Origin: Eledone cirrhosa
Lineage: Eukaryota
NCBI GenBank assembly: GCA_964016885.1
Contig: OZ024742.1
Location: 187,860,001-187,924,000 of the forward strand
Direction of reading: 5' to 3'
Length of the DNA: 64,000 bases
The notes below the pieces were generated by a model. The model did not search any database. It was not told where the DNA came from and saw only the letters and a list, made by a program, of their open reading frames with translations. Position 1 is the stretch's first letter. The number at the start of each line of letters is the position of its first letter. Below are positions 3,086-42,775 of the stretch, in pieces. Position numbers and translations under genes: made by a program.

Positions 3086-3215
3086 AAGTTTTAATATAGA
3101 TGAGATTCTACAGGACTAGAACTGTTTCATTCATTAGAAATCATCAGGAATTCCTGATGATTTCTAATGAATGAAACAGTTCTAGTCCTGTAGAATCTCA
3201 TCTATATTAAAACTT
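3086..3215. repeat. Spacer-less ~130 bp palindrome (fold-back pLTR fragment)
   Basis: Centre TCATCAGGAA|TTCCTGATGA. Each arm carries CTGATGA...GAAAC. A related copy lies at ~38900-39055. Confidence 0.9.
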
Positions 3216-3253
3216 ATATATATATATATATATATATATATATATATATATAT

Positions 3254-3545
3254 AATTGAATAAACAAGATAGATTAACACTAATATACACATACATGTGT
3301 TCGAATAGTAAGGACCACATTTGCTACGGTGAACAAATAATAACTACAGCAAAATGTTGTTATCAGGGGTTTTGCCCAACATAGGACTGTTATTTTTCTT
3401 TATTTTTTTTAAATTTAATATTTAAAGTTGAGGTAAACAAACCATATTTCTGTAGTTATTATTTTTTCACCCTAACAAATTTTCTCCTTACGATTCGAAC
3501 ACATGTATGTGTATAGTAGTGTTCATCTCTCTTATTTATTCAATT
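3254..3545. repeat. Diverged inverted repeat with ~100 bp arms between (TA)n tracts
   Basis: 3254-3357 is approximately the reverse complement of 3443-3545. Confidence 0.8.
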
Positions 3546-5024
3546 ATATTGTACGGCTCGGAAAAGCTTTCTTTCTTAGAGCTATTTAATTGTAAGAGAC
3601 TACACTTCTGAGTTCTTAACTCAATATATATATATTATTTATATATATATATATATATATATATATATATATATATATATATATATATATATATATATAT
3701 ATATATAGTAATAATAATAATAATATAGTTTCAAAAGATCCCGTTAAGGGTGAAAGCAGCGATTCTTTGCATACACTTTAATCTGGTATTTTAATGAATA
3801 TATATATATATATGGATACACACATAGACCCACTCCTTGTATCAATACAGTGTTAATACATTTATATATCGATATCTATATACACTCACACACAAACATA
3901 TGTATGCGTATTGTTATCTTTATATGTATATATATGTGTGCATATATGTGTGTTCTTTTATGTATGTATATATGTATATATGTCTTATTTTATGTATATG
4001 TCTATATGTATGTGTATATTTATATATATATATGTATGTGTATATTCATATATATATGTATATGTGAGTATATTTATGTATATACATGTGTGAATATTTA
4101 TATATATATATATATATATATATATATATGTATGTGTATATTTCTGTATATTTCTGTATATATATATGAATATATGTATGTGAATATATATATATATATA
4201 TATATGTGTGCTTATATATGTGTATATATTGTGTATATATTGTATATATATATATATATATATATATATATATATATATATAAATATATATATATATGTA
4301 TATATATATATATGCTTATATATGTATGTATATAAATATATGTATATATATATATATATATATATATATATATATATATATATATATATATATATATATA
4401 TATATATATATATATTTGTGCATATAGCATATATATATATGTGTGCATATAGCATATATATATATGTGAGTATGTATATATATATGTGAATATATTATAT
4501 ATATATATATATATATATATATATATATATATATATATATATATACATATATATTCACATGTATATACATACACACACTTATTTATATATATGCACACGC
4601 ATATATATTATAGAATACTGTTAGCTTCCCGCTAAAACAATTTCTATACCTTTCATTTATATATTTATATATTTATATACTTATATATATATATGCTTAT
4701 ATACATCTGTGTATATATATATGCTTGTATATATGTATATATATATATATACATATGCTCATATATGTATGTATATATATATACATATATATGCGTATAT
4801 ATATCTGTATATATAAAATCTTATATATGTGTATATATACATAGTTATATATGTGTATATATATACATACATATATATATATATATATATATATATATTT
4901 GTGTATATATATATGTATTTATATACATATAAATATATATGTACATATATATATATATATATATATATATATATATATATATATATATATATATGTATAT
5001 ATATATATGTATATATATATATAT

Positions 5025-5645
5025 TGTTATACTTTGGGAGGGTCATGTTGCCAATAAGAAACACACGCACCATCTGCTTTCACTTCAATTTATTAAATAT
5101 TTATAAATTTATAAATTTACAAATTTACAAACTTATAAATTTCTGGTTGGTTGGTTGGTTCCACAACCAGATAGTTGTTTATATATAGTCATAGTCCTTT
5201 CGTCACACACTGTGTGACCTCTTCAGTGACTGGGGATTCCTTTCTTCGTTTCTGTGCCTTTCCTTTCTTCTAACCTACGCCATTTTGTTTCTATGTGTGT
5301 GTTGTGTGCTCAGTTTGCGCATGCGCCACATCCGGGTGTCTGTGTGTGTTTGTGTTCATTTATATATTTGTTTCTTTATTTATTTATTTATTGTTGGTGT
5401 GACGAAAGGACTATGACTATATATAAACAACTATCTGGTTGTGGAACCAACCAACCAACCAACCAGAAATTTATAAGTTTGTAAATTTGTAAATTTATAA
5501 ATTTATAAATATATAATAAATTGAAGTGAAAGCAACTGGTGCGTGTGTTTCTTATTGGCAACATGACCCTCCCAAAGTATAACAATATCGGTTTCAACAC
5601 ACGATTTCAGATAAAGAATCTTGCTAAACAAATTCAGAAACGAAA
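5025..5645. mobile_element. Fold-back pLTR cassette (non-coding PLE remnant)
   Basis: 5025-5207 is the reverse complement of 5397-5586. The same terminus recurs at 24038-24149, 24560-24671 and, diverged, at ~32070. Confidence 0.8.
5187..5231 (-). ncRNA. Type I hammerhead ribozyme motif
   Basis: agtca-CTGAAGA-g gtcacac agt gtgtgac-GAAA-ggac-TA-tgact. Confidence 0.75.
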
Positions 5646-5829
5646 TATATATATATATATAAATATGTATAGTATTAAGGATACTATTTATGGTTATGTA
5701 TATACTAAAACCTTTTATAGTTATATATATTTTAAACCCTAAATAGTCAAAGATAGTAATTCATTACTAAGTATTACCAGTAAGATAAATAGGTGAATGT
5801 AACAACATCAGTTGTTTTACAGAGCAGTT

Positions 5830-6068
5830 ATATATCTAGCTACATACACTATCTAAAAACTAAAAATAAACCATATACACTTAAATGGGAAGTGATAGGT
5901 AATGCGACATCGTACAAACCACCTAATAAATGTTGTAGCCTCTGTCTTCTAGAGACCCATACTATCATCTTCTCAAACCATAACCTCCTTAATAAAAAAT
6001 CAGAAGTGTTCGCGTCTTGCCAACACCGCTTCCGACATTCCTTCCAAAACATTAAACCCAATATATAA
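5830..6068 (+). pseudogene. C-terminal fragment of a PLE GIY-YIG endonuclease
   Basis: SSYIHYLK...YTLKWEVIGNATSY...CSLCLLE...LLNKKSE...CQH, which aligns by eye with the ends of the 1331 and 47755 ORFs. Confidence 0.8.
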
Positions 6069-39940: not shown

Positions 39941-40380
39941 CAGGCGAGGGATAAATTGCCGGCTTTGCCAAATTCAAATAAAAAAGAAACTTTCGCTCTA
40001 CATGGCTGAATACAATAAATGTATGAGTTTTTCGAATATTATTAATAATATTCGATTCGCTTGCAATTATGCAAACAATATAGGGATATATGTAAATTAT
40101 ATGTAAAATACTGGGAGGTTGTATCCTAACAAGTAGAGGTCGAGTTTGGTATAGAGTTTGTTCCACAACAAATGAGCAAAGTATGGTTTGATAATTTGTT
40201 GTGGAAATAACTCCCTCTCCTCCTGTGTGTGTTTGTGATGTGTATCACTGCTCTCTCTCTCTCTCTCTCTCTCTCTCTCTCTCTCTCTCTCTCTCTCTCT
40301 CTCTATATATATATATATATATATATATATATATATATATATATATATATATATATATATATATATATATATATATATAT

Positions 40381-40920
40381 AGTAATAATAATAAATTCGA
40401 AGACAAAAATCCAAAGAGGGCTCGATAAGGATAACTATATATCACATATATAAGACTCGTAGAGTAAACATTTATTAAAATAACAGATTAAAGTTTAAGC
40501 AAAGAATCGCTGCTTTCACCCTTAACGGGATCTTCTGAAACTAAAAAAAAGTCAATCTCTTAACGCAGAAGTAAATATTTCAAAAAACGTTGCAACCGAA
40601 GGAAGACAGGAAGACGATACTTTGGTTCGTGGAAACGTTCCTTGGCAAAGAACGAGAAAGAAAACGAAGATTATACGTCATTATTTGGCGCGCTGAAAAC
40701 AATTACACGCAAATGACGTATTATCTTCGTTTTTTCCGTTCTTTGCCAGGGAACGTTTCCACGAACCAAAGTATCGTCATCGTGTCTTCCTTCGGTTGCA
40801 AAGTCTTTTGAAATATTTACTTCTGCGTTCACAGATTGACTTTTTTTAGTTTCAAAATATCCTGTTAAGGGTCAAAGCAGCGATTCTTTGCTTAAACTTT
40901 AATCTGTTATTTTAGTAAAT
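40381..40920. mobile_element. Fold-back solo pLTR of the 180-2775 PLE family
   Basis: 40381-40710 resembles 183-508. 40712-40915 is its inverted copy. Confidence 0.88.
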
Positions 40921-40974
40921 AAATAAATATGTATATATACAATAATAAATAAATATGTATATATATATATATTA

Positions 40975-41810
40975 AAATATTAATAAATGAGAAATACGTT
41001 CACATAACCAAAGTATAGATTTTATTATATATGTTTCAAGGGTTCAGTAGTTTTTGAGTACGCTTTCATCAGATAAAATACAAGAAATTGGTTATTCGAT
41101 ATACCGCTATGGTCAATCCATATAGTGGCAGTAAATTACTTCCTCAACACTAAACATTTATATACCACAACAATATGTTAACTTAGAGAAAAAGACGTAA
41201 AGAAACAAAGAAATAGAGAAGGGAAGTTGAAAATGAAGATATATATATATATATATATATATATATTATACATATATATTATATATATTTATATATATTA
41301 TATATATATATATTATATACATATATATATTATATATATATATATATATATTATATATATATATATTATATATATATATATATATATATATATATATATA
41401 TATATATATATATATATATATATATATAAAGAGAGCTTCTTTTTATTAATATTATATATATATATATATATATATATAATATTAATAAAAAGAAGCTCTC
41501 TTTATAAATTCATATTTATTTTATTATATATATTTCAAGGGTACCAACATTTTGGTACGCACTCATCAGATAAATACTGGTTTACAGATAGTGTCATATT
41601 CAGATAAGAACTTAATGTTGTGAGTTATATTTGAATATACTATTCAAATAGAACTCACAACATTAAGTTATTGCCTGAATATGTCACTATCTGTAAACCA
41701 ACTTTTGTATTTTATCTGCTGAGTGCGTACCAACATTTTCGTACCCTTGAAATATATATAATAAAATATATATGCTTTTATAAAGAGAGCTTCTTTTTAT
41801 TAATATTATA
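40975..41810. mobile_element. Nested fold-back pLTR fragments with three hammerhead motifs
   Basis: HHRs at 41020-41078 -, 41520-41574 - and 41710-41766 + (CTGCTGA). Palindromes are centred at ~41465 and ~41640. Confidence 0.8.
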
Positions 41811-42204
41811 TATATATATATACATATATATATATATATATATATATATATATATATATATATATATATATATATATATATATATATATATATATATATA
41901 TATATATATATATATATATACATAAAAGGAAAGCACAAACAAGGGACAGATCCCTCTTCAATTGTCTGCTGGCGGTCTCGGAATTTTGCCGCATTAAGGG
42001 AAATATGTCTATCGTGTCAATCATTTTTGTAAGTTTTAGGGGATGGATAAAAGGATAAAGAAAAAATATTAAACAGAAAGGAAAAAAAGGCGTAGAATAC
42101 ATACCATCAGAGGATGGGAAAACACGCGGAGAAGCACACACACACACACACACACATATATATATATATATATATATATATATATATATATATATATATA
42201 TATA

Positions 42205-42775
42205 TATATTAAATTCATAGGGATATATGTATACATTTAGACATAGTCACAGATACATATATGTGTGTGGCTACCTTTCACGGTGTGACTCAATGAATTA
42301 ATTAAGCAAATAATTATTAATCCGAACTATATATAAAATTGCAAGTTTGAAGAATTATTCGATAAATATATACAGTCTTTCCTCTCCCTAGTCCGTAAAA
42401 ATCAACTACATAAATAATCATTTAAACGAGGCTATAAGTTGAAAATGTAACTATGAAGAAATAGTCGGGACTAGAGGAATTTTGTTAAAGTATATATGCA
42501 TTTTTTCTTCTAACTTATATTTAAGACCTAACTCCGTGTAGTTGATTATTTGTCTAGTCAATTTCTACGGGCTAAAAGGAGGGACTAGATACATTTTTTC
42601 TGGTTGTCTCTCGCGAAAAATAGTCTGTATCAGTTGTCTATTTTTTCTTCCTAGTTACATTTTAAACTTATAGCCTCGTTTAAATGATTATTTATGTGGT
42701 TGATTTCTACGGACTAGGGAGAGGAGAGACTTGTACATATGTTATCGAATAATTCTTCAAACTAGGTAATTTTAT
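42205..42775. mobile_element. Fold-back copy of the 10255-11285 repeat family
   Basis: 42320-42462 is the reverse complement of 42640-42775. The direct arm begins at AGTC/GGGAC. Confidence 0.8.

Follow-up and report, generated by a model that had tools for sequence, protein, structure and literature searches.

The window analysed here is a stretch of 64,000 nucleotides from Eledone cirrhosa (assembly GCA_964016885.1, contig OZ024742.1, positions 187,860,001 to 187,924,000), whose genome of 3.0 Gb has a GC content of 30% and is rich in (TA)n. It contains ten short hairpin cassettes, designated A to J (Table 1), which an earlier note had described as about ten fold-backs embedded in TA tracts, most of them containing a hammerhead ribozyme (HHR) or matching the end of a coding Penelope-like element (PLE). 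Inverted repeats bordered by TA tracts are present at all ten positions, but H (41430) has no head-to-head fold-back. Eight of the ten cassettes are head-to-head insertions of PLE ends in (TA)n, and the ten hairpins do not form a single family. Five of them (A, C, E, G and I) are linked to coding PLEs, four of which are of the Hydra type. In eight (A, B, C, D, E, F, G and J) the ends are unequal, with an extension of 39–128 nt on one arm only, referred to below as the tail.

A descriptor of the type I HHR matched the window ten times, compared with a mean of 0.16 (maximum 2) in 50 local shuffles; a stricter descriptor that required a stem III of 3 bp missed most motifs and was replaced by this wider one. 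Cassettes A, C, D and E carry the motif by descriptor, cassette I by eye only, and G has a core variant with CAGAAGA in place of CTGANGA and all three stems intact (40537, minus strand; 21,646 pattern matches in the assembly, G000). No HHR was found in B, F, H or J. The claim that most cassettes have an HHR or correspond to the end of a coding PLE is therefore true for six of the ten. Among the PLE families to which the cassettes belong, the HHR is located in the pseudo-long terminal repeat (pLTR) of A, C, E and I and, as the variant, of G, and it was not found in the pLTRs of B, F and J; cleavage is predicted from sequence. The 150 of 258 Rfam matches listed include no hammerhead and are generic hairpin models under the gathering scores.

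Cassette A and Its Parent Element

A full element of family A, about 6 kb in length, was found at locus L065. It consists of a leader, an intact open reading frame (ORF) of 713 aa, a long 3' untranslated region (UTR) and a terminal direct repeat of 73 nt. The ORF combining reverse transcriptase (RT) and GIY-YIG endonuclease (EN) is present at this locus and at three of 30 loci. The protein displays RWR, DKT and YRDD motifs, a CxCx5C linker, a GIY-YIG spacer without the cysteine pair and a CxxC/CxH motif near its end. Pfam recognizes only a weak GIY-YIG domain (E 0.019), and the 1,403 homologues are unnamed and, among the 120 listed, mostly full-length. The RWK-like and DKT motifs, the CxCx5C linker, the absence of CCHH, the CxxC/CxH motif and the (TA)n target all agree with the definition of the Hydra clade in PMC8557442. 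By this motif match family A would belong to the Hydra clade; an assignment to Neptune was dropped when the motifs were compared with the Hydra definition. In families A, C, E, G and I, the cassettes correspond to the ends of elements with an RT plus C-terminal GIY-YIG ORF, and an inverted 5'-truncated copy adjoins the 5' end, as in EN-containing (EN+) PLEs.

The pLTR of family A is ordered as follows: a TATA box, in which TATAAA begins at −30 relative to a hot-spot A (+1), the HHR core from +7 with its predicted cut after +45, site 2 at +66, the tail of 67 nt, and site 1 at +134, with the ATG about 50 nt past site 1. Cassette A reads from site 1 back to +3, where it is fused to a second copy running from +3 out to site 2. 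The whole cassette folds as a perfect 64-bp stem (−117.5 kcal/mol), in which both ribozymes are predicted to be buried.

Recurrence of the Junction

A best-hit search with 517 candidates recovered cassette A near full length, at 98–100% identity, in 39 of 40 scored places. Thirty loci were fetched; three of them belong to a local 4.9-kb triplication, and 28 are independent. The latter share identical boundaries within unrelated TA or TA-rich flanks, in which the (TA)n is of variable length. Such a search yields only look-alikes, and an unbiased pattern was used to count junctions; here and below, the family samples are the first 24–100 matches on contig C1 and not a genome-wide set. An exact pattern of the HHR arm of family A gave 14,624 matches (control pattern, 0), and tight head-to-head junctions, sister families included, numbered 6,389 by pattern versus 29 for the control pattern. 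About 18 of the first 50 tight junctions were assigned to family A by eye; they occur in about 11 forms, none of which equals that of the window. The remainder stem mostly from sister families with the same HHR core, which likewise form tight palindromes, with junctions around GCTTCC (e.g., G000:C1:17028582).

The 28 copies of the window junction were compared for sequence variants. The shared arm variant is present on both arms in five of five cases, and one-arm variants occur as four singletons; in a wider set, a single one-arm variant is shared by two loci, at the arm edge. All four haplotypes (+21/+68) of the 28 copies also occur in promoter-bearing or coding copies. Given that the junction is carried by four parental haplotypes and the variants lie on both arms, the junction is evidently polyphyletic, each palindrome having been written from a one-arm template. 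It had been proposed earlier that the same junction at many loci would mean transposition of the cassette as a unit. The cassette at 3086 does recur in this manner, but the test is not diagnostic, since one junction has formed again and again on distinct parental haplotypes and the family has many junctions at one hot spot. The copying of the hairpin as a unit was rejected on the grounds of arm symmetry and haplotypes.

Inner and Outer Ends of the Arms

The first 100 arms of family A comprise 47 that continue into the upstream pLTR and 53 that stop, 48 of them at −1 to +7 of one A and five at −2 to −12. When 45 of the upstream-extending arms were re-aligned, 21 were found to stop over −29 to −325, at a per-base rate about 75-fold lower than at the hot spot. 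A base other than the parental C is present at −1 in 2,284 family A matches; the first 100 listed have G in 76 cases, T in 13 and A in 11. Among 30 fetched loci with a non-parental −1 base, ten have a base other than G, which in five of them is a point change in a copy that retains the promoter. True inner ends have G at −1 in 20 of 25 cases, with the parental upstream sequence kept in 0 of 20. Six junctions selected for a short gap show the G on both arms, separated by one to four bases. Full-length L1 insertions have an extra G at the 5' junction that is attributable to the mRNA cap (PMC11702581); from this and the G at −1 we infer that each of the two cDNAs had run to a capped start.

Each family has two fixed outer ends, one on either arm. 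In 23 of 25 divergent family A pairs, spanning 200 bp to 8 kb, the tail is found on one arm only, and in the two exceptions the tail of one arm is mutated or partly deleted. The tail-less arm extends further upstream than the tailed one by 188 nt in cassette C and by 182 nt in cassette J. Thus, neither arm of these two is a mere copy of the other, and snap-back from one tail-primed cDNA could not yield such arms.

Other Families

Family E (9,467 pattern matches) has its RT-EN ORF in the window and at six of 30 loci. Gaps of 108–121 were observed in 11 of 38 divergent pairs; two complete arms predict 114, and the window copy has 116. The left arm of the window copy ends in C, equivalent to G at −1. 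The junctions of family I (2,860 matches) cluster at ACTAT(C/T)C, where the right arm in the window starts, and at L383 an RT-EN ORF lies between two arms of this family. Family G, whose coding ORF is found in the window and at five of 30 loci, and family F (46 matches) also have a hot spot, but the arms of cassette G reach well upstream beyond it and cassette F runs about 50 nt upstream of it. Matches of family C (4,122) mostly continue into a Neptune-like ORF (14 of 24 loci; also L388) with a CxxxxCxxC linker and cysteines inside the GIY-YIG domain. Besides the window copy, eight of the 40 places scored for family B match the greater part of the query at 81–88% identity, and all seven inspected copies differ in the junction. 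Family J (123 matches) has a variable arm spacing.

The earlier note had inferred an origin from PLEs, TA targeting and mobilization by the PLE RT/GIY-YIG, and these points are supported. Its option of truncation products is apt for B, C, F, G and J, which are ordinary truncated twins, but less so for A, E and I, which are probably complete leader copies.

Proposed Mechanism

We estimate at about three in four the probability that the mini-palindromes (A, E and I) are twin-primed copies of the leader, fused after run-off at the cap, that the larger twins result from priming on the downstream pLTR, and that cassette D is copied in trans. In this scheme, the PLE endonuclease would cut a TA repeat on either strand, and each cut strand would prime RT at its own fixed internal site on the sense RNA, the two sites being the borders of the tail. 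When priming takes place on the 5' leader, both cDNAs would run to the m7G (7-methylguanosine) cap, after about 65 and 135 nt in family A, and add C opposite the cap; the two run-off cDNAs would then be end-joined with microhomology or a few filler bases. When priming takes place on the downstream pLTR, the cDNAs would halt at random places and yield twins that are larger and each unique (B, C, F, G and J). The leader of the full-length mRNA or a short RNA from solo pLTRs may serve as the template.

The mini-palindromes would recur because the RT start sites and the cap are fixed. As they have no upstream TATA box and both ribozymes are predicted to be buried, they are likely to be dead on arrival, being formed anew each time. 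For cassettes A, E and I, complete copying of a short leader is a better reading than a clonal family that mimics miniature inverted-repeat transposable elements (MITEs). A broader statement, which we regard as somewhat better than an even bet, is that symmetric twin priming on capped sense RNA is the routine mode of PLE integration, initiation on the leader mass-producing strong-stop-like mini-palindromes that share their end rule with retrozymes.

Several points weigh against this proposal. The start site and the cap are deduced from DNA alone, and about five of the 20 G bases can also be explained by the partner arm or the flank. The signal is thinner in family E, with G in four of eight non-parental cases at −1; a single case was recorded in family G and none was scored in families F or I. 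A TATA box at −30 was not seen for families E or I. The arm pattern begins at +7, so that ends deeper inside, including one at the ribozyme cut, are invisible to it. Contrary to the one-tail rule, the tail is absent from both arms of cassette I, and a family A palindrome at L308 (270–620) has it on both arms. No coding parent of B, F or J was present within the DNA fetched, which for J includes two longer inverted pairs. The promoter of the Drosophila virilis Penelope element is internal (PMC2377424), and the loss of the TATA box may therefore not silence the cassettes. Finally, the PLE protein used in vitro is that of a Poseidon element, not of Hydra (PMC11167929).

Alternative Explanations

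An unlikely alternative, though the best of those considered, is that the cassettes have non-coding masters of their own, short RNAs from solo pLTRs or from the long arms of cassettes being copied in trans as a true non-autonomous family. It would account for one unit of 196 nt in nearly all scored loci, the fetched sample contains 16 arms with both promoter and tail, the internal Penelope promoter would permit such transcription, and symmetric arms are also expected from single-arm transcripts. However, the 28 copies have no private shared variant and their junction is distributed over four parental haplotypes, and the about 11 junction forms of family A among the first 50 tight junctions do not include that of the window. 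If whole hairpins were copied, shared one-arm variants would be predicted; there are none in the 28 copies, and the wider set holds only the two-locus edge case. The suggestion of a MITE-mimicking family is thus improbable for A, E and I; the junctions of family A are heterogeneous, and that of the window lies on several parental haplotypes. A true MITE, with the terminal inverted repeats of DNA transposons and a constant internal junction (PMC8969392), was rejected on account of the unequal ends, the variable junctions and the derivation of the sequence from the leader of an RT element. The label of retrozyme was likewise rejected for these three cassettes, which consist of head-to-head pairs only, with no head-to-tail units.

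Self-priming, in which a single cDNA, perhaps made on an antisense template, folds back and is copied into the second arm, was proposed for the palindromes of rotifer PLEs (PMC3846280). The identity of the arms and the many junctions that are short palindromes or microhomologies would fit, but we hold this to be improbable: the extra G stands on both arms with one to four filler bases between, each arm has its own fixed end site, the tail-less arm is the longer one upstream in C and J, and the inner ends fit a sense-strand start below a TATA box. A stall of RT at stem I of the hammerhead during the copying of a long RNA, with no RNA end involved, is more doubtful still. In A and G, stem I begins with the hot-spot base, but in E and I the hot spot is located about 70–80 nt above the core, F has a hot spot and no HHR was found in it, and the G at −1 would be left unexplained. 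Long-read fold-back or assembly artefacts can virtually be dismissed: palindromes in TA-rich DNA are error-prone, and among the contigs listed (four runs of one study) none bridges the 3150 junction with 31 bases per side, but the same asymmetric boundaries appear at 28 unrelated loci, the arms diverge by up to 14%, and tails and filler bases are family-specific.

Cassette D

The twin-priming scheme would extend to cassette D, although this cassette is of a different nature. The family D pattern was matched 15,130 times, frequently by tandem copies spaced about 470–540 bp apart. Its unit comprises 462 nt plus an internal (TA)n and carries one HHR with a stem I of 7 bp, a stem II of 4 bp and a palindromic stem III; the longest ATG frame in two units amounts to 66 aa (non-coding), and no linked PLE ORF was found beside it in 24 loci. 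An array of at least five units is present at L346, where the units alternate between two variants, as though a dimer had been copied. With non-coding head-to-tail units and a type I HHR in each, cassette D corresponds, as judged from its sequence, to the genomic definition of a non-LTR retrozyme.

Cassette D also carries the end signature of PLEs: two fixed ends 59 nt apart, an inverted partner and a TA target. Across the 24 loci, nine copies run into the next unit, five end at one fixed site, six at a site 59 nt earlier and four otherwise, with inner junctions at varied places within the unit. The window copy joins an arm of 505 nt starting from site 1 to one of 347 nt ending at site 2. It is likely that the PLE machinery copies this cassette in trans. 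The idea of a retrozyme-like non-autonomous family, put forward in the earlier note, is thus retained for the tandem HHR repeat of cassette D alone and not for A, E and I.

At L047 (1481–1558), contigs of X1–X3 contain joints that lead back by 77–78 nt, site 2 being connected to a point slightly above the putative start. These joints hint that the leader of family A may form short tandem arrays, a possible route from pLTR to retrozyme. The summed contig depth at L047 rises at the putative start and drops beyond site 1, and loose ends lie at +4; depth does not equate to copy number, and this was not counted as evidence.

Other Features of the Window

Table 1. Cassettes and coding PLE copies in the window (positions of the whole stretch).
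Feature	Position	Strand	Description
Cassette A	3019–3215		Long arm with tail and short arm of a Hydra-type PLE leader; arms 3086–3149 and 3152–3215, 100% identical
Cassette A, junction	3150/3151		GGAA/TTCC
Cassette A, tail	3019–3085	−	67 nt between the putative RT starts site 2 (3086) and site 1 (3019); role proposed by analogy to PMC11167929
Cassette A, short-arm type I hammerhead motif	3154–3192	+	Mirror copy at 3147–3109, minus; predicted cut after 3192
Cassette B	3254–3624		Twin-arm insertion; arms 86% identical; 79-nt tail
Cassette C	5022–5645		Truncated twin of Neptune-like PLE; arms 96% identical; HHR at 5226, minus
Cassette D	24853–25719		Retrozyme inserted head-to-head: non-coding tandem repeat of 462 nt with an HHR at 25212, minus; the (TA)n inside it belongs to the unit
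Cassette E	31040–31470		Probable leader run-off twin; arms 99%; HHRs at 31281, plus, and 31140, minus; 89-nt tail
Cassette F	33648–34182		Twin-arm insertion; arms 97%; 39-nt tail
Cassette G	40380–40920		Truncated twin of the coding family at 183–2773; arms 92%; variant HHR core at 40537, minus; 90-nt tail
H	41428–41504		25-nt end fragment, tail-to-tail with the end of I, from which a TA tract separates it
Cassette I	41479–41806		Older twin; arms 89%; right arm starts at the putative family start (ACTATTC, 41639); HHR at 41569, minus
Cassette J	42205–42775		Truncated twin; arms 92%; 128-nt tail
5'-truncated coding PLE, family G	183–2773	−	ORF pieces 2236–1334; inverted pLTR 2238–2773
5'-truncated coding PLE, family E	47288–50005	+	ORF piece 47755–48747; pLTR HHR at 49817; inverted pLTR 47294–47596

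Cassettes A and B and the coding copy of family G lie within a 4.9-kb unit present in three tandem copies (window 183–5072; G000:C3:187853253-187863215). A second fold-back (47595–47907) was noticed within the coding copy of family E, where its ORF is truncated at the 5' end. Another coding PLE fragment (20847–21233, minus strand) is part of a region (19284–21963) with inverted ends of 740 bp, between which a 390-bp hairpin (20021–20412) is made of a common repeat resembling a short interspersed nuclear element (SINE). Two truncated PLE copies unrelated to the ten cassettes (25580–26605 and 56001–56977) gave Pfam GIY-YIG matches with E-values of 3.5e-07 and 1.2e-05, respectively. HHR-like motifs of other families are situated at 34978/57179, 38536/39772, 59785, 22119 and 41072. 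Finally, an abundant family of short perfect palindromes (around GACCCCGACGG) occurs in adjoining TA tracts, in the flanks of L044, L006, L118 and L357.

Comparison with Known Systems

The architecture of the cassettes is already known, but the start-site run-off class and its bearing on self-priming were not found in the open literature. A search of that literature, with subscription journals, Repbase notes and supplements outside its scope, returned no paper on a cap G or start-site palindromes in PLEs, and the available part of PMC13282606 does not discuss such structures. The Hydra family lists in the supplements of PMC8557442 may include the families described here. In PMC4209133, Cervera and de la Pena (2014) reported pairs of HHRs 100–700 bp apart on opposite strands, probably truncated PLEs; the available part gives no junction analysis or mechanism.

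As in the insertions of EN+ PLEs described in PMC8557442 and PMC3846280, those in E. cirrhosa have an inverted 5'-truncated copy at the 5' end, a tail at one end, palindromic sequence where the inverted copies join and (TA)n targets; an HHR motif in the pLTR, as in those elements, was found in families A, C, E and I and, as a variant, in G. Unlike them, thousands of insertions here consist of two leader copies only, with inner ends at the putative capped start. Both papers regard the building of the inverted ends as an unsettled matter, and Arkhipova et al. (2013, PMC3846280) favour self-priming on an antisense template as the reading of such palindromes; the thousands of natural junctions favour two cDNAs from capped sense RNA instead. 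The Hydra clade of Craig et al. (2021, PMC8557442) shares with family A the HHR and the TA targeting besides the protein motifs, but its elements are "generally <3 kb", whereas family A reaches about 6 kb with its long 3' UTR.

A biochemical parallel is the purified PAc Poseidon protein of Frangieh et al. (2024, PMC11167929): it cuts the target on both strands, extends each of them and begins reverse transcription at two internal positions that delimit the tail. The two tail-bounding start sites and the AT-rich target resemble those put forward here, and HHR cleavage was dispensable in vitro. Poseidon represents a different clade, and the start sites proposed here lie in the leader ahead of the ATG; neither joined palindromes nor a cap G are described in the available part of that work. 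An intact young ORF, a template of 134 nt and a TA target are now at hand for a direct in vitro test. Twin priming of L1 (PMC11702581) is comparable in that the second target strand primes a second cDNA and the products are end-joined with microhomology. In L1, however, the stretches of RNA copied into the two cDNAs lie next to each other, whereas here both cDNAs would cover the same part and be able to reach the cap. Should this hold, ribozyme hairpins would by the thousands mimic MITEs and map the start site of each family to a single base. Annotators should bear in mind that a repeat may be uniform, high-copy and MITE-like and yet be a by-product that recurs without any master copy.

Animal non-LTR retrozymes (Cervera and de la Pena 2020, PMC7229834; Li et al. 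2026, 10.64898/2026.07.22.740005) are, like cassette D, non-coding head-to-tail repeats with type I HHRs, and it has been proposed that PLEs move them; A, E and I differ from them in not being tandem. Cassette D shows, in addition, the PLE end signature, and so adds evidence from insertion sites to the hitherto phylogenetic case for the mobilization of animal retrozymes by PLEs.

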